A stretch of DNA of 62,375 nucleotides, counting the filler, from Caldilineae bacterium (GTDB lineage Bacteria; Chloroflexota; Anaerolineae; DTLA01), in the NCBI GenBank assembly GCA_037446815.1. It is 15 parts of 15 records of this genome, joined end to end, with 100 filler letters (N's around TTAATTAATTAA, not from the genome) between each part and the next. Parts side by side here need not be neighbours in the genome. Positions count along the whole stretch, not along the records: positions 4,606 to 9,082 come from JBBIHX010000208.1; 14 more parts are not named here. One strand, 5' to 3'. A program made the translations under genes and the position numbers. Of this stretch, positions 4,606 through 16,800 are shown piece after piece (within the stretch, counting starts at the first letter, position 1; each line of letters starts with the position of its first letter). The notes below the pieces were generated by a model. It saw only the letters and a program-made list of their open reading frames with translations. It made no database searches and was not told the origin of the DNA.

Positions 4606-4746
4606 CCGAGGCGCGAAGCGCCGAGGAATCTCGCCTTCCCCCTGTCCGCCCAATCCGCGCTGTCCGCGGATACCGCTGCGATTCGCCCTTATCAACGCCG
4701 CACGCGGGTAGTATACGTGGCGCGATAGCCCTACAGGAGGTGTGCC

Positions 4747-5910
4747 ATGCGCCTGCCCTTCCGCATCGTCCGCGTGCGCGAGGCCGAAGCCGACGAGGAA
4801 GATGCGCCGCTGTTCCGCGCCATCGGCCCGTGGCCGTCGGACAAGGACCTTTCGCCCGCCACGTACCAGGAACTCCACGCCGCGGCCTACGAGGCGTACA
4901 CGGGGAATCCCCTCGCTTTCCGCATCATAGAGATTCTCACCGCGTACCTGTGGGGGCGCGGGCCGACGATTACCGCCCCCGACCCCGCCGTCCAGGCGGC
5001 GCTGGATCGGTTCTGGGCTGCCAACGACATGAACCGCAAGGGCCGCGCCATCGTCCGCGAACTCCACCTGTACGGCGAGCAGTTCATCCGCTGGCTGCCC
5101 GACGGCACCATCTGGCAGATGGACCCGTCCACCATAGACGAACTCCAGACGGACCCCGCCAACGCGCAGGTGGTGGTGCGGGTCCACCGGATGGCCCCCG
5201 AAGGCGCGGCAGGCGCATGGTACGCCGTCCCCGACGAGGTGCAGCACTTCGCCATCCACAAGGTGTCCAACGCGCTACGGGGGCGCTCCACGTTGTGGGT
5301 GCTCCTGCCGTGGCTGCGGCGGTATCGCCAGTGGTTGGCCGACAGGGTCATGTTGAACCGCGGGCGGTCCTCGTGGTTGTGGACGGTGGCGGTGCGCAGC
5401 GCCACGCCCCAGAAGTTGCGCGCGAAGGCCAACCAGTACGCTCAGGCGCCGGAGCCTGGCTCGGTGCTATTCCACGCCGATGACGAAGAATGGCGGGCCG
5501 CCGCGCCCAATCTCCAGGCGGACGATGCCCGCTGGGACGGCCACGCCATCAAACTCATGATCGCGGCGGGCGCAGGCATCCCCATCCACTGGCTGAGCGA
5601 GGTGGAGAGCGGCACGCGGGCCGTGGCCGCGGAGATGGGCGGGCCGTCGCTGCGCACCTTTGAGGCCATGCGCGAAGAGGTGGCCGCGCTCCTGCGGGAC
5701 GTGCTGGACCAGGCGCTGCGACGGCGGCTCGGACGGACGGCGCCGTACACCATCACATTCCCCGACCTCACACCCTCGGACAATCGCGAACAAGCCGCGG
5801 CCCTCGCGGCGCTGGTGCCTGCGCTGGCTGCCTCGGTGGATCGCGGGTGGCTGGACGACGCGACAGCTCGTCGGTGGCTGTTCAAGTTCGCAGGCGAAAA
5901 GGATGAGTAG
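4747..5910 (+). CDS. phage portal-like protein
   Basis: 387 aa; AYTGNPLAFRIIE, RELHLYGEQFI, LRGRSTL, IAAGAGIPIHWL, YTITFPDL, GWLDDATARR resemble portal motifs; RBS AGGAGGT. Confidence 0.75.
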   Translation: MRLPFRIVRVREAEADEEDAPLFRAIGPWPSDKDLSPATYQELHAAAYEAYTGNPLAFRIIEILTAYLWGRGPTITAPDPAVQAALDRFWAANDMNRKGRAIVRELHLYGEQFIRWLPDGTIWQMDPSTIDELQTDPANAQVVVRVHRMAPEGAAGAWYAVPDEVQHFAIHKVSNALRGRSTLWVLLPWLRRYRQWLADRVMLNRGRSSWLWTVAVRSATPQKLRAKANQYAQAPEPGSVLFHADDEEWRAAAPNLQADDARWDGHAIKLMIAAGAGIPIHWLSEVESGTRAVAAEMGGPSLRTFEAMREEVAALLRDVLDQALRRRLGRTAPYTITFPDLTPSDNREQAAALAALVPALAASVDRGWLDDATARRWLFKFAGEKDE

Positions 5911-5965
5911 CGCGGAGGGCGGTTCGGCGGCGCCGACGGGCCGTGGGGCCCCTGGTGTGGCGCGG

Positions 5966-7657
5966 CTAGCCGCCCAGGATGCCGTAGTGGAGCAGAAGCC
6001 ATAGGGTGCACAAGCCCAGCGTGATGGCGGTTACGGGCAGCCCCCTCTTCAGCCAGTCCCCGTACCGAACGGGATAGCCGGCGCGCTCGGAGATGCCTGC
6101 CATCACCAGGTTGGGCGAGGCCCCGATGAGCGTTACGTTGCCCCCAAAGTCCGACCCCACGGCCAGGGCGAAGAAGAGCATCTTCTTGCTGGCCCCCGGC
6201 ACCCGCCCCGTGAGAAAGTCCACCACAGGCAGCATCGCGGCGGTGAAGGGGATGTTGTCAATCACGCCCGAAAGCACGGCGCTGAGCCAGATGAGCGTTA
6301 GCATCGTGAGGAGCAGACTGTGCCCCACCAGTTTCCCGATCTGGTCTGCAATCATGCTCACAAGGCCGACCTCTTGGATGCCCCCAACTACGATGAACAG
6401 CGTGATGAAGAAGATGAGCGTCGTCCAATCCACCGACTCAATCATCTCCTCCACGTTTGGGCGCGTCCAGACGACGAGAATGGTGGCCCCCACGAGCGCG
6501 GTTACCGCAGGCACCAGGTACAGCCGCTCGCCCAGGAGGAACAGGGTCAGCATAAACAGTCCAACCCATCCCGCCTTCTTGAGGTCGTCGGGTTCGGTAA
6601 TCTTCGCGTTGTCCTCTAGCCGTCGCACTAGGGCGGGCGAAACCCTTGCCGCCGTGCGGGTCAACTCCCTCGCGTACAGGATCTCAAAGAACACGACGAG
6701 CCCAACCAACGCCAGGAGCACGCCGGGCGTCAGGTTCACCAGAAAGGCGCGGAACGAGATGTCGGCGAAAGACCCCACCAGGATGTTGGTGGGCGTCCCG
6801 ATGAGGGTGCTGGTTCCTGCCACGTTTGCTGCCATCACCTCGGGCACCAGCAGGGCCAGCGGGTTGATGCCCAGCGCCAGCGCGATTTGAACGGTGAACG
6901 GTGCCATCAGCAGCACCGTCGTAACGTTGTCCAAGAACGCCGAGAACACGCTGGTGATGACCAGCAGAATGGGCATCAGCAGCCAGCCTCTCCCTCCGGA
7001 GATGCGGTAGGCGAAGAAGGCGAGCCACTGGAAGATGCCCGTCCGTTCCACAACGGCGATGTGAATCATCATACCCATGATGAGAAAAACCACGTCCCAA
7101 TCCACGTAGCGGAGCGCGGTCTCAAAGTCAAAGATGAACAGGGCAGGGCTGATGAGTCGGCCGAGGTAACTGACGCCCAGCAGGATCGCCGTGCCCGCAA
7201 GCGCGGCCAGCGTGTTGTGCAATTGCTCGGTCGCGATGATGACGATGGTCAGCGCGAAGGTGGCCGTCGCCAGCCAGAAGCCGATGCCGATGCGCCGCTC
7301 CAATTGGATAGATGGTAGAGAAAGGGTCTCGCCCCGCTCCAGGGAGGCAACCTGCTCGTCGGACAGCGGGATGTCCTGCGGGGCGAAGTGGGCGCGCTGC
7401 ACGTGTACGGTCAAGTGCGTCCCCAGCGACGACGGCACCAGGAGCGAATACAAGCCGTCGGGTTCTGTCGTGGTCTCTGCGACGGCCGTGGTGCTCGCGC
7501 CCTCCACGAGGGAGACGGTGGCGCCCTCTACCGGCTCGCCGTGGCTGTCCAGCACTTAGCCGGTGATGACGGTGGGGCACGCGGTCGTCTGGGCGTGCGT
7601 GGCGCGCAGGGGCAGCGCCTTGCCTACAAGCCACGCGGCGGCAAGCGCCACCAGCAC
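5966..7657 (-). pseudogene. SLC13/ArsB-NhaD family permease with N-terminal carboxypeptidase-regulatory-like domain, interrupted by an in-frame TAA at 7556-7558
   Basis: SAFLDNVTT, AGTSTLIGTPTNI, SGVIDNIPF, GGNVTLIGASPN; ORFs 7556-7744 and 5966-7555 are in the same frame across a single stop (ITG*VLDSHGEPVEGATV). Confidence 0.7.
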
Positions 7658-7715
7658 GATCGCTCCCTCCGCACTGGTGCTCCCGAAGACCGTCGCCGGT
7701 CGGACGGGGCAGGCT

Positions 7716-7744
7716 ATTGTACCGCACGGCCGGATGGGGGTCAA
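7716..7744 (-). promoter_or_regulatory. sigma70-type promoter of the permease
   Basis: minus strand TTGACC-17 bp-TACAAT. Confidence 0.65.
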
Positions 7745-7949
7745 GGCGGCGTGGTTCCGTTGCCGAAGTCGCCGTTGCAGGCAAAGCCGCTCCTAGGCTG
7801 CGCGGAGAGTGCGGCGGCGCCGATCGCGGGTAACACGGCGCAACACAATCCAGGGGCGGGGCGCGGAGACATGCCCACAGAGGGCAACGCCACCCCGCCC
7901 CCGCGGTTTAGGTCGGTGCCTCGCGCCGACCGGCGGTTCTACAACCCGC

Positions 7950-8402
7950 CTAGTCGGGCAGTTTCAGTTCCTGTCCTGGGTGAATCAGGTTGGGGTTGTC
8001 GCCGATGAGGGCCTTGTTGAGTTCGTAAATCTCGGGCCAGCGTTTGGCGTCGCCCAGCAGTTCCTTGGCGATTTTGGACAGGGAATCGCCGGGCTTCACG
8101 ACGTAGGTTTTCGGTTTGGCCTGCTCAACGGCCTGACGCATGGCGGCGGCCATGGCCTCGCCGCGCTGGCGAATCTTCTCGGCCTCGGCTGCGGCTTCGG
8201 CTTCCAGCGCGGCTTTACGCTTGGCGGCCTCTTCCTCGGCGCGTTTCTGGGCCTCCTCAATCATGCGCTGCTTCTCGGCCAGTTCTTCGCGCCGTTTGCG
8301 GGCAGCCTCCTCGGCGGCAGCCTTTCGCGCGGCTTCTTCCGCTTGCTTTGCCTTCTCCTCTTCTTCCCTCTTTCTTCCGAGAATCTTGTCTACCAGACCC
8401 AT
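7950..8402 (-). CDS. LysM domain protein with charged coiled-coil N-terminus
   Basis: YVVKPGDSLSKIAK...RWPEIYELNK..IGDNPNLIHPGQELKLP; RBS GGAGG. Confidence 0.9.
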   Translation of the reverse strand: MGLVDKILGRKREEEEKAKQAEEAARKAAAEEAARKRREELAEKQRMIEEAQKRAEEEAAKRKAALEAEAAAEAEKIRQRGEAMAAAMRQAVEQAKPKTYVVKPGDSLSKIAKELLGDAKRWPEIYELNKALIGDNPNLIHPGQELKLPD

Positions 8403-8502
8403 GGCACACCTCCAGTTTTTTGTGTATGCTCAAGGGCGCGCGGGGAGATACCCGGGCACCCCCGCACGGCTTCGCGGCGGGGGTATCCCGTGCGCCCCGA
8501 AC

Positions 8503-8685
8503 TTATAGCCCTTTGAGCGCGGTGGATAGAACGAGCAGAACCAACCCGATAACCACAACCCAGAATCCGACGATGGACAGCACGTTCATCGCCATCGCAA
8601 GCGACAGGATCTCCAGCACGATGCCCACGGCGCCCAGTGCCACGGAAAGCCACCAGATGCTCTTCTTTGGCGGGGTCAATCTCAT
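8503..8685 (-). CDS. small two-TM membrane protein
   Basis: 60 aa, two hydrophobic segments, RBS GAGGAGG. Confidence 0.75.
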   Translation of the reverse strand: MRLTPPKKSIWWLSVALGAVGIVLEILSLAMAMNVLSIVGFWVVVIGLVLLVLSTALKGL

Positions 8686-8774
8686 CTTCGTACCTCCTCG
8701 CTGTTATCAAGTTTTCGGACCGACGACGTAGTCATCCGCCAGGGCCTGCACGCGAGTAACGGCGTTCTCAGGGA

Positions 8775-9082
8775 CTATTCCTCGGGCGGTTGCCGCTTCT
8801 TCGGCGGCGCTTTCTTCGCCGTCTTCGCCGTGGTCTTCGCAGGCGCGGGTTTGGGGCGCGCCGCCGGCTTGGATGGCGCGGGCTCGGGCTGCGGCTGGGC
8901 GGCCGCCGTCGTGCCCAATGTGCTCCCCAGGGTCAGGAAGACCTCGCGCAGGCTGTTCAGCGCCGTATCCTCGTCCAGCCCCACCTGCTGGGCGAGCTCC
9001 GCATGGAGGCCGGTGGACTGCAGGTATTGGGCGCTGAGGCGGCGCGGGTTGCCACTAAGCATCCGACCCAGGAGATCGCCCA
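8775..9082 (-). CDS. hypothetical protein, 3' fragment with Lys/Ala/Pro-rich tail
   Basis: frame open from the contig edge; AKTTAKTAKKAPPKK tail. Confidence 0.55.
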
Positions 9083-11458: not shown

Positions 11459-12781
11459 ATGAAGCCCATTGTCGCCGTGGTTGGCCGCCCCAATGTGGGC
11501 AAATCCACCCTGTTCAATCGCCTCATCGGGCAGCCCCTGGCCATCGTGGAAGATTCGCCCGGGACGACCCGCGACCGCCTGTACGCCGACTCCGAGTGGA
11601 ATGGCCGCGCCTTCACCGTGGTGGACACAGGGGGGCTGGTCTTTGACGAGTCGGGCGAGGTGGAGTGGAAGGTGCGGGAACAGGCTCAAATCGCCATCGC
11701 CGAGGCCGATGTCATCGTCTTCATGGTGGACGCCTCCACAGGCCTGACCGCAGCCGACCGCGAGGCCGCCGATCTTCTGCGCCGCACCAAGAAGCCGCTC
11801 ATCCTCGCCGCCAACAAGGCCGACAACGAGCAGCGCCGCCAGGCTGCCGTGGAGTTCTACGAACTGGGCCTGGGCGAGCCGATTCCCATCTCGGCGCTCC
11901 ACGGGACGGGCACGGGCGACCTGCTGGACGCCATCACCGCGTCCTTCGCGCCGGAGGTGGTGGAAGAAGCCGACGAAGCCATGCGCGTGGCCATCGTGGG
12001 CCGGCCCAACGTGGGCAAGTCCTCGCTGCTGAACGCCCTGCTGGGCGAGGAGCGGGCCATCGTCAGCGAGATTCCGGGCACGACCCGCGACGCCATAGAT
12101 ACCCGCCTGGACTGGGGCGGCCAGCCCATCGTGCTGATTGACACCGCCGGCATCCGCCGCCGCGGGCGCGTGGAGCCGGGCGTAGAGAAGTACAGCGTCC
12201 TGCGGGCCATGCGCGCCATCCAGCGGGCCGATGTGGCGGTCCTGGTGCTGGACGGCGTGGATGGCCCCACGGCCCAGGATGCCCACATCGCCGGCTACAT
12301 CCTGGAGGAGATGAAGAGCGTCGTCGTGGCCGTGAACAAGTGGGACTTGGTGCCCAAGGATTCGCACACCATGCACCAGTACACCCAGGTGGTGCGGGCG
12401 GCCCTTCGGTTCATGGACTACGTGCCGGTGCTGTTCATCTCGGCGAAGACGGGCCAGCGGGTGGGCCAGGTGCTGGACACGGCGCTGCGCGTCCGCGATG
12501 AGCGCCTGGTGCGCCTGTCCACCGCCGAACTCAACGACATCCTCCGCACGGCGGTGGCTCGCCAGTCGCCGCCCACCAAGGCCGGCAAGGCGCTGAAGTT
12601 CTACTACGCCACCCAGCCCGCCGTGGACCCTCCCACGTTCGTGTTCTTCGTGAACGACAAGGAGTTGGTGCACTTCTCCTACGTGCGCTACCTGGAGAAT
12701 CAGATTCGCGAGCGGTACCCGTTTACGGGCACGCCGTTGCGGATGCTGTTCCGGGGGCGCGAGCCGCGGAGGAAGAAGTAG
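11459..12781 (+). CDS. der: ribosome biogenesis GTPase Der/EngA
   Basis: two G domains (GRPNVGKS x2, DTGG/DTAG, NKAD/NKWD) and C-terminal KH-like domain. Confidence 0.97.
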   Translation: MKPIVAVVGRPNVGKSTLFNRLIGQPLAIVEDSPGTTRDRLYADSEWNGRAFTVVDTGGLVFDESGEVEWKVREQAQIAIAEADVIVFMVDASTGLTAADREAADLLRRTKKPLILAANKADNEQRRQAAVEFYELGLGEPIPISALHGTGTGDLLDAITASFAPEVVEEADEAMRVAIVGRPNVGKSSLLNALLGEERAIVSEIPGTTRDAIDTRLDWGGQPIVLIDTAGIRRRGRVEPGVEKYSVLRAMRAIQRADVAVLVLDGVDGPTAQDAHIAGYILEEMKSVVVAVNKWDLVPKDSHTMHQYTQVVRAALRFMDYVPVLFISAKTGQRVGQVLDTALRVRDERLVRLSTAELNDILRTAVARQSPPTKAGKALKFYYATQPAVDPPTFVFFVNDKELVHFSYVRYLENQIRERYPFTGTPLRMLFRGREPRRKK

Positions 12782-13835: not shown

Positions 13836-16800
13836 ATGAACCTTCGCGTTTTGATCCTGGAAGACCGGCCGGAAGACGCCGAACTGATGTTGCGGGAACT
13901 GCGGCGCGCCGGGTACAACCCCGAGTTCCGCCGCGTCGCCTCGGAGGCCGAGTTCGTCGCAAGCCTCTCCGACCGCTGGGACATCATCCTGTCCGACTAC
14001 TTCTTGCCCGCCTTCACCGGCCTCCAAGCCCTGCGCCTGGTGCAGGAGCGCGGCCTGGACATCCCCTTTGTCCTCGCAACGGGGTCCACCAACGAAGAGA
14101 TAGCCGCGGAGTGCATGCGCGCGGGCGCGGCCGACTACGTGCTCAAGGACCACCTCGCCCGCCTCGGGCCCGCCGTGCAGCGCGCGCTGGAGCGCAAGCG
14201 CGCCCGCGACGAGCGCAGGCAAGCCCTGGAGGCCCTGCGCGAAAGCGAGGCCAAACTCCGCACCGTCTTCCACAGTTCCGCCGACCTCATCACCATCGCC
14301 GACATGGAGACCGGCGTCTACGTAGAGGTCAACGACGGCTTCCTGCAGACGACCAACTACACCCGCGATGAGGTGCTCGGCAAGACCGGCGAGGACCTGC
14401 GCCTGTGGGTGGAGCCCGACCAGCGGGCCCGCATCGTGTCGCGCCTTGTGCAGGGGATGCCCGCGCGCAACGAGGAAACCTGGTTTCGCAAGAAGGACGG
14501 GACGCCCTTCGTCGGCCTGCTCACCGCCGAGATCATTACGGTGTCGGGCCGCCCGTCCCTGCTCTGCATCGTCCGCGACATCACCGAGCGCAAGCAGATG
14601 GAGCGCCAAGCGGAGGAGCGGCGCTTGTTCCTGGAGAGCGTGCTGGCCTGCGCGCCCGACGCGGTCGCAGTCCTGGATGCCCAAGCCCGAGTCGTGGAGT
14701 GGAGCCTCGGCGCCGAGGCGCTCTTCGGCTACACCCGCGACGAGGCGCTGGGCAGGGACATAGACGAACTGGTCGCCGCCCCCGACCCGGCGATTCGCAA
14801 GGAGGCCGTGGGCCTGACCGAACGACTCCTGCGCGGCGAGCCGGTGAAGACCACCGAGATGGTGCGCTACCGCAAGGACGGCTCGCCGGTTACAGTCATC
14901 GCTGCCGGCGCCCCCATCGTGATAGAGGGCAGGGTCGTCGGCATCGTCGCCGTCTACACCGACATCACCGAGCGCAAGCGCGCAGAAGAGGCGCTCCGCG
15001 ACAGCGAGCAGCGGTACCAAACCCTGGCCAAGATGTCGCCGGTGGGCATCTTCCGAACGGACGCCCAGGGCAAGACGACCTACGTCAACCCGCGCTGGAG
15101 CGAGATTTCCGGGCTGGACGCTCAAAACGCCCTGGCCAACGGCTGGCTTAAGGTCGTGCATCCCGAGGACCGGGACCACATCGCCGCCGGCTGGGCCGAC
15201 GCTACAAAGGCAAGCGCCCCGTCCACCGCCGAATACCGCTTCCTCCGGCCCGACGGGCAGGTCGCCTGGGTCATCGGGCAGGCCGTCCCCGAGACCGATG
15301 CCCAAGGCAACCTCGTGGGGTACGTGGGAACCATCACCGACATCACCGAGCGCAAACAGATGGAAGAGGCGCTGGCCCGCCGCAACCGCGAACTGCAAAC
15401 CCTGAACGAACTGAGCCGCGCCCTGGCCCAGACCCTGGACCTGCAGCGCATCTACGTAACCGCCCGCGATTACGTGGCCCAACTCGTGGACGCGCCGGTG
15501 TTCGGGATTTCCCTGTACGACGCGGCCTCGCGGACCTTGCGCGCCGAGTTCATGTCCAGCGACGGCGAGATTCTGGACACCTCCCAGTTCCCCCCGCTGG
15601 CCATGCCCTCGGATGCCCCGGAGCCCCTCCGCGGGCGCGCCAAGGCCATCCTCACCGCCGAGCCCGAGGTGATAGCATCGCTGCCCGACGTCCTCGCCCA
15701 GACCGGCGCGAAATCGCGGGTGATCGGCGCGGCGGGCGATGAGCGCGAGCCGCTCTCGGCCGCCTACGTCCCCATGGTCGTGGAAGGCCAAGTCATCGGC
15801 CTCATGGAGGTGCAGAGTTACCGCGCGAACGCCTACGACAAGGACGCAGCCGACATGCTCCGCTCCGTCGCGGGCCAGATCGGCCTCGCCATCCAGAACG
15901 CGCGCCTGTTCCAGCAGGTGCAAGCCCATGCCGCCGAACTGGAGCGCAGCCTGAAGGAACTGCAGCGAACCCAATACGCCCTCATCGCCAGCGAGGCCCG
16001 TTTCCGCAGCCTGGTAGAGTCCATGGACGACATCGTGTTCACCCTGGATCGTCGGGGCCGCCACACGGGCGTCTTTGGCCGCTGGCTGGAGAAGTACGGC
16101 ACCCCGCCGGAGATGTATCTGGGCAAGGCCGCCCGCGAACTCCTGGGGCCGGAGGCCGCCCGCATCCACGAGGAAGCCAACGCCCGCGCCCTGGCCGGCG
16201 AGAACGTCGTCTACGAGTGGTCGGCCGAGCGGCCTAATGGGACGACCTACGTGCAAACGTCGCTCTCGCCCCTGCTCGGCCCGAACGGGCAGGTGGTCGG
16301 CATCGTCGGCGTGGGCCGCGACATCACGGACCTCAAGCGNNNNNNNNNNNNNNNNNNNNNNNNNNNNNNNNNNNNNNNNNNNNNNNNNNNNNNNNNNNNN
16401 NNNNNNNNNNNNNNNNNNNNNNNNNNNNNNNNNNNNNNNCTGCGCGAAAGCGAGCAGCGGTACCGGTCCCTGGTGAACCTCTCGCCCGATGGCATCTGGG
16501 TCCATCGGTACGGAGAAGTCCTGTTCGCCAACCGCGCCGCCGCGGCAATGTTCGGCGCGCAGAGCCCCGATGACCTCATCGGCAAGCAAACGCTGGACTT
16601 CGTCGCGCCGGAATACCGCGAGATTGTGTGGGAACGGATGAGGCGCGGGCAGGAGGAAGGCGAGCCGGCGCCCCTGATTGAGGAAAAACTGCTCCGTCTG
16701 GACGGGAGCGAGTTTTGGGCAGACGTGTGCGCCGTGCCGATAGAGTGGGGCGGCCAGCCCGCCGTGCAGGTCATCATCCGCGACATCACCGAGCGCAAGC

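Follow-up and report, generated by a model that had tools for sequence, protein, structure and literature searches.

In known gene transfer agents (GTAs) the genes for head and packaging lie together in a single phage-like cluster, and in RcGTA, the agent of Rhodobacter capsulatus, the genes for the large terminase subunit (TerL), the portal and the capsid are among its 17 clustered genes. Scattered viral structural genes that are co-expressed, and that give rise to particles without their own genes, are known from the polydnaviruses of parasitoid wasps. A published account describes RcGTA as 'distributed among five loci', with 17 genes, which include most of those for head and tail morphogenesis, in one siphovirus-like locus (PMC5721377). 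Here we analyse an intact phage portal gene in a 62,375-nucleotide stretch of DNA (the window, positions 1-62375) from Caldilineae bacterium, assembly GCA_037446815.1, and propose, with a probability of roughly 0.6, that it belongs to a domesticated, co-regulated and dispersed GTA-like particle system in which the portal is kept for the host's use.

The system that we propose resembles RcGTA in being made of phage-derived head, packaging, tail and lysis genes kept by a host, and resembles CcGTA of Caulobacter crescentus, which is under dedicated transcriptional control, in being a domesticated phage-like particle. The differences are as instructive: (i) unlike in RcGTA, the genes for TerL, portal and capsid stand apart from one another in host loci, with even the module for head and packaging split; (ii) the tail is apparently short and not siphovirus-like, and the hosts belong to another phylum; (iii) CcGTA is reported to be clustered, whereas here scattered units are linked by a promoter motif; and (iv) clustered Chloroflexota elements (L081, G015, G036 and G037) carry the same protein families, but contiguously and without the motif CCCTTATCAAC. 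The nearest analogy in logic may be the domestication of the polydnaviruses, which is eukaryotic and involves a different virus lineage. We found no publication on a GTA or a dispersed phage-gene system in Chloroflexota, Anaerolineae or Ktedonobacteria, which does not establish its absence from print.

The portal gene and its orthologues

The window consists of 15 pieces (about 3.8-4.5 kb each) joined by 14 linkers of the form N...TTAATTAATTAA...N, with an additional internal N gap at 16340-16439 in the fourth piece; features that cross the joints are artefacts. The portal gene and the elements that precede it are the following:

4606-9082: the piece of the window that bears the portal gene
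4686-4696, plus strand: motif CCCTTATCAAC, with a -35-like TTATCA at 4689-4694
4712-4717, plus strand: -10-like hexamer TATACG, 17 nucleotides after TTATCA, its first TA invariant in 17 aligned promoters
4735-4740, plus strand: ribosome-binding site AGGAGG, 6 nucleotides before the portal ATG
4747-5910, plus strand: portal protein gene (P0001), 387 amino acids, intact, ATG start, no interruption

The original prediction had read here an uninterrupted portal gene of 387 codons with a strong ribosome-binding site and a host-like base composition, and all of this is borne out, the third-position GC content (GC3) of the gene being 0.88 as against 0.73-0.86 for the remaining genes of the same contig. 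Among the PHROG profiles, phrog_10963 ('portal protein') matches the open reading frame (ORF) at E 1.2e-25, with weaker matches to the portal families phrog_146 (E 1.8e-6) and phrog_64 (E 1.4e-3), and Pfam SPP1_portal (PF05133) stays below its gathering cut-off (15.4 vs 25.5 bits, E 0.0094). The orthologues in L001 and L003 have no Pfam match at 0.001, and a precomputed Pfam portal family is attached to 28 of 78 database homologues. An AlphaFold2 model, built on an alignment of 23 sequences, has a mean predicted local distance difference test score (pLDDT) of 77.6. When it was compared with the PDB by Foldseek, as the original prediction had proposed, the matches listed (ranks 1-49) were all portals, or assemblies that contain them, from phages, archaeal viruses, a satellite (SaPI1) and a GTA, at probability 1.00, E values of 3e-12 to 1e-8 and template modelling (TM) scores of 0.49-0.64; they include phiCD508, lambda, T4, HFTV1, G20c, P23-45 and RcGTA. 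By profile and model, the ORF is a true tailed-phage portal, the structural match being one of the whole fold. The RcGTA portal (6tba) ranks 47 among the matches listed, at 15% identity and behind many phage portals. We considered and rejected a specific kinship with the RcGTA family: the portal is no nearer that of RcGTA than those of phages, and the capsid of the relatives is a Phage_capsid_4 protease fusion.

A scan of one genome per species returned three close orthologues, with protein identities of 96% (L001 and L002) and 91% (L003); the next best matches reach at most 45% and come mostly from Ktedonobacteria. Among 40 genomes taken as relatives of one of the carriers, G002, four (G001-G004) have a single copy at 91-96%, seven have copies at 30-45% and 29 have none. 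These four orthologue-bearing genomes are metagenome-assembled genomes (MAGs) of Anaerolineae/Chloroflexota of unspecified completeness, and with metagenome contigs they are the basis of what follows. The portal, TerL and capsid queries each gave a single match per genome where present, and the close portal orthologues are restricted to one clade. Five further portal contigs, at 82-94% amino acid identity, came from a metagenome scan; L245, a metagenome contig of 60.7 kb that matches G003 nearly exactly, has host genes on both flanks of its portal.

Around the orthologues the genes are those of the host. In L001 and L002 the 10 kb on each side of the portal hold host genes and no prophage, the neighbours being a PMT_2 glycosyltransferase, a DUF6798 protein, an MFS protein, a GAF/PAS histidine kinase, DegV, a multihaem cytochrome and asparaginase, together with peptidases and proteins of the PLD and radical SAM families, and the Pfam scan of 36 proteins around these portals found no phage family. 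The claim of a solitary gene in a host context holds for these two relatives; it does not carry over to the left side of the window, where the contig ends at an artificial joint 141 nucleotides 5' of the ATG. The flanks of L003 (G003) extend for 3.3 kb on one side and contain small phage-derived genes on the other. These small genes beside the G003 and G004 portals, like the gene pair that follows TerL in G001 (below), were revealed only by BLAST, and Pfam scans of G001-G004 identified no integrase, replication or further phage family beside the genes. Between the window piece and the loci of the relatives, DNA similarity is limited to the portal and about 60 nucleotides upstream. The genes that neighbour the portal in the window have their G001 counterparts on other contigs (C89 and C162, 77-83% nucleotide identity), and the G001 portal lies on C231 with a DNA identity of 89%.

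Partner genes and a shared promoter-like motif

The original prediction had supposed that the portal could be part of a dispersed GTA-like or capsid system, and the genes for such a system do lie at other loci of the relatives, behind the same motif. At least seven phage-derived genes in five transcription units occur in the nearest relatives: TerL in four of four genomes, a holin-like gene and a 140-residue Zn-ribbon gene likewise in all four, and a capsid fusion and an adaptor-like/hub-like pair in three of four each. These partners are observed in the relatives, and the genome from which the window comes presumably has them too.

In distant relatives the portal adjoins a prohead-protease/major-capsid fusion of about 670 residues (phrog_4523, phrog_29592) and also a family of about 500 residues (cluster c12). 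By its sequence this family is TerL, since its consensus reads RQAGKN and LLECDEAQ, its profile matches solved TerL nuclease domains (E 1.3e-4 to 5e-4) and the TerL of the clade passes Pfam Terminase_6C (29-35 bits vs a cut-off of 22.6). It is present and stop-free in all four genomes (E < 1e-184), never on the contig of the portal, and it retains 57 of the 57 columns that are invariant in 20 TerLs from phage loci, including RQAGKN and LLECDEA. A hybrid PAS kinase, dnaG-rpoD, uvrB, pgi, a papain-like protease and MarR are its neighbours. A different terminase occurs on G003:C56 (L170 1-9348), a contig of 9.3 kb, 60% GC and GC3 0.63-0.71 whose genes are tightly packed and almost all on one strand: it bears a phrog_38 terminase (E 4e-87) followed by a 612-residue ORF, and the phrog_38 TerL matched this contig only. 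We rejected C56 as part of the dispersed set and take it for an unrelated phage or a binning guest.

The capsid fusion, 89% identical among the three genomes that have it, scores about 137 bits against Pfam Phage_capsid_4 (cut-off 27), and its first 165 residues can be aligned with the section of a relative's fusion that matches prohead proteases. PDB sequence searches returned nothing for it or for the adaptor-like family. It is flanked by a STAND-TPR protein, toxin-antitoxin pairs, ferredoxin-type proteins and threonine-pathway enzymes. The genes directly 5' of the solitary capsid are those for an nSTAND NTPase-TPR protein and a PIN/MazE pair in G002 (L165 4593-8569) and HicA with a small partner in G003 and G004 (L166 4833-5370; L197 4613-5063).

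Directly 3' of TerL in G001 are genes for proteins of 204 and 640 residues with homologues in viral contigs, and the 640-residue protein recurs in G003 and G004 (80% identical). The likeness to known tail proteins comes through the family profile and a viral homologue, not from the proteins of the clade directly: the profile of the 640-residue family matches the Mu gp44 baseplate hub (1wru) at positions 413-611 (E 1.8e-5), and a viral homologue of the 204-residue protein passes Pfam SU10_adaptor (36.7 bits vs 27). Sialidase-type BNR repeats occur in the N-terminal half of the 640-residue protein. A membrane protein of 94-97 residues, with three hydrophobic segments, one of them strong and two weaker, and a charged tail, is found in all four genomes and looks holin-like. 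The 140-residue protein, also in all four, opens with a C-x4-C...C-x2-H pattern (Zn-ribbon); in 15 viral contigs its family stands directly 5' of TerL in eight and of the portal in six, a position from which one may guess at a small terminase. For this family the PDB sequence search returned only designed helical proteins. A 535-residue protein encoded by L081 was tried as a further member and rejected as not conserved, with one partial match (G003) among the four genomes.

Large sensor kinases adjoin several of the units. A hybrid protein with PAS, kinase, receiver and Hpt domains is divergent from TerL in G001 and G002 (L202 4889-8857; L203 4870-8871), and a GAF/PAS hybrid kinase separates the capsid unit from the portal unit in G003 and G004 (L003 6623-11533; L197 8901-13877); that these kinases control the units is speculation.

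The units have a common signature in front of them: CCCTTATCAAC, then 15-16 nucleotides, a TA that opens a -10-like element, and a strong GGAGG site. It precedes the portal, the holin-like gene, TerL, the capsid fusion and the adaptor-like gene, and of the 17 aligned regions 5' of these five genes 16 have the motif unchanged, the exception being TerL of G004 (CACTTGTCAAC); the TerL genes of G003 and G004 have C(C/A)CTTGTCAAC in its place. The 11 nucleotides are invariant while the spacers around them have diverged, about 60 nucleotides 5' of the portal are conserved across the genomes, and the motif also stands 5' of the portal in L245, L246, L248 and L249. The context of the ribosome-binding site, CAGGAGGTGTGCCATG, is nearly identical upstream of the portal and of the adaptor-like gene of the relatives; in G001 the stretch just 5' of the latter (C33, 22527-22596) resembles window positions 4685-4750 at 77%.

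In G001-G004 the exact motif occurs 15 times, and all 15 copies are upstream of phage-derived genes. The looser CCYTTATCAAC occurs 17 times in the four genomes as against 3 for the reversed control, and two copies of CCTTTATCAAC are inside a GTPase gene. The composite CTTRTCAAC-N15/16-TA-N12-42-GGAG gives 19 matches against 0 for its control, 16 of them at phage-derived genes and the other three at a pdxS orthologue with a canonical TTGTCA-N17-TATAGAAT promoter. A pattern that allows a long leader adds the capsid genes of G003 and G004, and also picks up one housekeeping promoter in all four genomes and one probable chance match. Outside the clade the motif is at background: the 36 other relatives together have 28 copies of the 11-mer (control 33), 2.2 Mb of loci from Ktedonobacteria and viral contigs show no enrichment (17 vs about 33 expected), and 36.7 kb of the clustered relatives lack CCCTTATCAAC, with one TTGTCAAC, which is intragenic. 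In the Ktedonobacteria loci no 10-mer is common to the upstream regions of three or more genes of the element.

CTTGTCAAC begins near-consensus promoters of pdxS and of another conserved gene (L229, L234, L236; L257, L262-L264), which suggests that the extended -35 context is the housekeeping form of the clade. From the alignments we infer that the motif is a sigma-A-type promoter with a clade-specific extended -35 that would allow joint control. A strict sigma-70 consensus scan did not call the TATACG/-35 pair; over 4606-6100 it found no promoter, and the terminator scan of the same interval likewise gave 0 sites.

Dispersal, inheritance and the rest of the window

The phage-derived genes of G001-G004 occupy three to five separate loci among housekeeping genes, on contigs of 32-62 kb with host genes around the units. 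G002 has a separate contig for each of the units of portal, TerL, capsid and holin-like gene (C3, C95, C96 and C64); the contigs of the first three are 40-62 kb long, and host genes extend for some 9-10 kb or more to either side of each of these three genes. G001 spreads TerL with the adaptor/hub pair, the portal and the holin-like unit over three. In G003, G004 and L245 the order is capsid (plus strand), a ferredoxin-type gene, a GAF kinase of 1,650 residues and, on the opposite strand, the genes for the 140-, 97- and 239-residue proteins and the portal; capsid and portal are convergent and about 9-10 kb apart. TerL and the hub pair of G003 and G004 are on contigs other than that of capsid and portal, and in L249 the capsid is 5.4 kb from the portal. 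With genes on separate host contigs of this length, packaging of the system by itself is implausible.

The portal lacks its usual place between terminase and head genes: in the window the contig ends on its left and a transporter lies on its right, and the terminase-portal-head arrangement is met only in the distant relatives L081, G015, G036 and G037. The sister element L081 (IMG/VR) has the 97-residue gene, TerL, portal, capsid fusion, adaptor-like and hub-like genes in one run, and classical adjacency is seen in relatives with homologues at 37-59%, namely G015 (TerL-portal) and G036 and G037 (TerL-portal-capsid). Since the order is clustered in these, dispersal is, on gene order, the derived state, and its degree differs between members of the clade. 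A tree of 72 portals unites the eight sequences of the dispersed clade (83 in the Shimodaira-Hasegawa-like approximate likelihood ratio test, SH-aLRT); the branches within this group are very short and its stem is long. Its sister is L081, whose portal is 55% identical to those of the clade (SH-aLRT 100).

A looser arrangement is seen further away. Five Ktedonobacteria (G041-G045; portal loci L075, L004, L036, L054 and L029) have a TerL of the same family in four of five cases, never adjoining the portal: about 14 kb away in G041, where a stop interrupts it, and in G044; in G042 on contig C2, the portal record there being 'sequence03'; and about 380 kb away in G043, if C1 is the record of the portal. 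In the 80 genomic loci kept, TerL is within 10 kb of the portal in only 2 and the capsid fusion in 38. The whole gene family may be loosely dispersed across Chloroflexota. Viral contigs of the family (IMG/VR; L102-L107) vary in gene order: several have an unusual one, with the 140-residue gene, portal and capsid and then TerL 5-7 kb further on, and others the classical order of 140-residue gene, TerL and portal.

Selection was measured as the ratio of nonsynonymous to synonymous rates (dN/dS) by the Nei-Gojobori method, the portal being represented by 21 pairs with dS 0.10-0.73:

portal: dN/dS 0.05-0.22
TerL: dN/dS 0.11-0.24
capsid fusion: dN/dS 0.12-0.23
holin-like gene: dN/dS 0.04-0.10
140-residue gene: dN/dS 0.06-0.16
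adaptor-like gene: dN/dS 0.23-0.35
hub-like gene: dN/dS 0.15-0.20
seven neighbouring host genes: dN/dS 0.12-0.36

The values of the phage-derived genes are at or below those of the neighbouring host genes, and wherever the seven were found their reading frames are free of internal stops. In all genes that offer pairs within and between groups, dS sets G001 and G002 against G003 and G004 (three host genes offer a single pair each), a uniform grouping that fits inheritance with the genome; the portal of the window is a third lineage, nearer to G001 and G002. A check of vertical inheritance and dN/dS had been suggested with the original prediction, and both come out in its favour: as far as substitution patterns can tell, the portal is under strong purifying selection and inherited with the host lineage.

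The remaining features of the portal-bearing piece belong to the host or to the assembly:

4606-4635, strand not assigned: short dispersed repeat of 30 nucleotides with a GGCGC-GAA-GCGCC hairpin, at the left contig edge
5966-7555, minus strand: CitMHS-family host transporter (Pfam CitMHS, E 3.9e-76), convergent with the portal
7950-8402, minus strand: LysM protein, 150 amino acids, C-terminal LysM (Pfam E 7e-9)

The transporter is the convergent downstream neighbour that had been predicted; it is the right-hand boundary and lies outside the portal system. A contig of an independent public run (X1) bridges the 3' end of the portal and the transporter, whose orthologue in G001 is on contig C89 (83% nucleotide identity) and not with the portal. 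The LysM protein, 2 kb from the portal, has PHROG matches to endolysins or tail LysM proteins; it is probably a host wall-binding protein and not a lysin of the system, because it is syntenic with host genes in G001 (C162). The 140 bp upstream of the portal had been taken for non-coding repeat sequence, which is right for 4606-4635 and not for 4686-4742, where the conserved promoter-like motif and the ribosome-binding site lie. Matches of 28-30 nucleotides (93-97%) to the repeat account for 18 of the 30 matches listed for G002, where copies are often paired, 75-93 nucleotides apart (for example on C34, C86 and C76), and it looks like an element of the clade of the repetitive extragenic palindromic (REP) or miniature inverted-repeat transposable element (MITE) type. 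The window has one copy (at most 3 mismatches). Contigs of four DNA runs (X1-X4) match just the repeat stretch and then diverge, branching at 4606-4635, and the leftward extension that had been advised was not obtained from any of them; the repeat is probably the cause of the assembly stop and not part of the gene.

A proposed particle for the host, and the other explanations

We propose that the genes would work as follows. A signal would switch on the five units in a fraction of the cells; the same promoter motif and strong ribosome-binding site at each unit suggest that they could be switched on together. The protease-capsid fusion would assemble round the portal ring and process itself, TerL, perhaps guided by the 140-residue protein, would pump DNA through the portal, and the adaptor-like and hub-like proteins would seal the portal and make up a short tail that bears a sugar-binding propeller. 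The small holin-like membrane protein could then aid lysis of the producer cell, and the product would most likely be a small short-tailed capsid. Since the genes are scattered, such a particle could probably not carry its own genome, and its behaviour, including any transfer of DNA to other cells, would be GTA-like. The gene content of G001-G004 is that of a GTA, with structural, packaging and lysis genes and without replication or integration modules, and no contiguous phage block or integrase was found in these genomes, the GC3 of the portal (0.88) being host-like. More tentatively, and at somewhat less than even odds, we suggest that this Anaerolineae clade runs a fully disassembled GTA, its terminase, portal, capsid, tail and lysis genes each forming a chromosomal unit of its own and linked only by one shared promoter signature.

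Several observations weigh against the proposal of a dispersed GTA-like system. The window itself contains nothing of it beyond the portal, its promoter motif and its ribosome-binding site: the motif has a single copy, without a second one in the other 14 pieces, and a capsid homologue is absent from these pieces too (best tblastn E 0.87). G001 yielded no capsid fusion and G002 no 640-residue hub-like protein, both being MAGs of unspecified completeness. The labels holin-like, adaptor-like and hub-like rest on weak or indirect matches, PHROGs and Pfam have no match for the clade's own proteins of 97, 140, 204, 239 and 640 residues, and the set yielded no endolysin, tail tube or recognised small terminase. 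The motif may be an ordinary sigma-A promoter and not the site of a dedicated regulator. In G003, G004, L245 and L249 capsid and portal are just 5-10 kb apart, and dispersal is partial there; a prophage remnant into which host genes have inserted would be another reading. Finally, the portal ORF of L249, a lineage at 82% identity, has a disrupted 3' end and reads on past about codon 377 to 598 residues. In that contig (L249 10001-14234) two extra copies of the last 23 portal codons are found at 12187-12255 and 14166-14234, which suggests insertions in the 3' end of the portal; protein P0005 (598 residues) has the same extension.

These points bear differently on the rival explanations. The absence of a recognisable tail tube and endolysin would suit genes domesticated for another purpose, be it anti-phage interference, a decoy or an assembly poison, a particle whose cargo is not host DNA, or a portal ring used as a channel, and so would the defence-type neighbours of the capsid (nSTAND-TPR and PIN/MazE in G002, HicA in G003 and G004); purifying selection and a shared promoter show use by the host, not which use. 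We nevertheless consider such a purpose unlikely: TerL keeps all the invariant columns of its ATPase and nuclease, and the adaptor-like and hub-like genes are co-conserved under the same promoter, a set that a tailed particle filled with DNA would require and that exceeds the needs of a decoy or a channel. The ring or channel that the original prediction had offered as an alternative has gained no support, the virion partners being conserved together with the portal. That the genes are an inert remnant of an old prophage, its pieces separated by rearrangement and not yet decayed, would account for the common 5-10-kb neighbourhood of portal and capsid in G003, G004, L245 and L249, for the broken portal 3' end of L249 with its repeated C-terminal fragments and for the insertion sequence (IS)-type genes near the portal of L246. 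It is nonetheless improbable, as the seven genes are stop-free wherever found, the L249 portal 3' end being the sole known break, dN/dS is 0.04-0.35 while dS reaches 0.4-0.7, the 11-nucleotide motif is invariant amid diverged spacers, and codon composition is host-like.

Only 141 nucleotides are available upstream of the portal, the contig ends in a repeat that no run contig extended, and TerL lies directly upstream of the portal in the classical relatives, so that the window portal might be the right-hand edge of an intact prophage beyond 4606. The 60 nucleotides upstream are, however, the promoter of the clade and not the end of a TerL gene, no TerL or phage gene lies 5' of the portal in L001, L002, L003, L196, L245, L246 and L248 (1.5-10 kb), and the downstream neighbour is a host transporter and not a capsid gene; an adjoining prophage is accordingly very improbable. 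There is similarly little chance that this is a helper-dependent, satellite-like system that makes its own capsid and borrows tails or other functions. Satellites that form capsids from their own portal, capsid and terminase genes are known, and the minimal tail complement would agree with one, but the genes of a satellite must stay contiguous to be packaged, and here they are on separate contigs of up to 60 kb in housekeeping surroundings, with no integrase or replication gene beside the units in the Pfam scans.

Clustered GTAs leave it open whether the clusters are selected as units or are slowly decaying prophages. Pieces that are broken up and yet intact and at least as conserved as their neighbours, and that share a motif, are hard to explain unless the assembled product is under selection at the level of the host. 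Should particles be made, GTAs would extend to the Chloroflexota, which abound in sediments, hot springs and bioreactors and are mostly uncultured, as a natural virus-derived machine of about seven genes with a defined regulatory motif from which its switch might be found; and if full disassembly is true, polydnavirus-style domestication would have a counterpart in bacteria, and this phylum its first GTA-like system. The looser spread in Ktedonobacteria hints that related domesticated elements are possibly widespread there. Single 'orphan' phage structural genes in draft genomes can belong to dispersed systems, which prophage finders and cluster-based GTA searches would miss.

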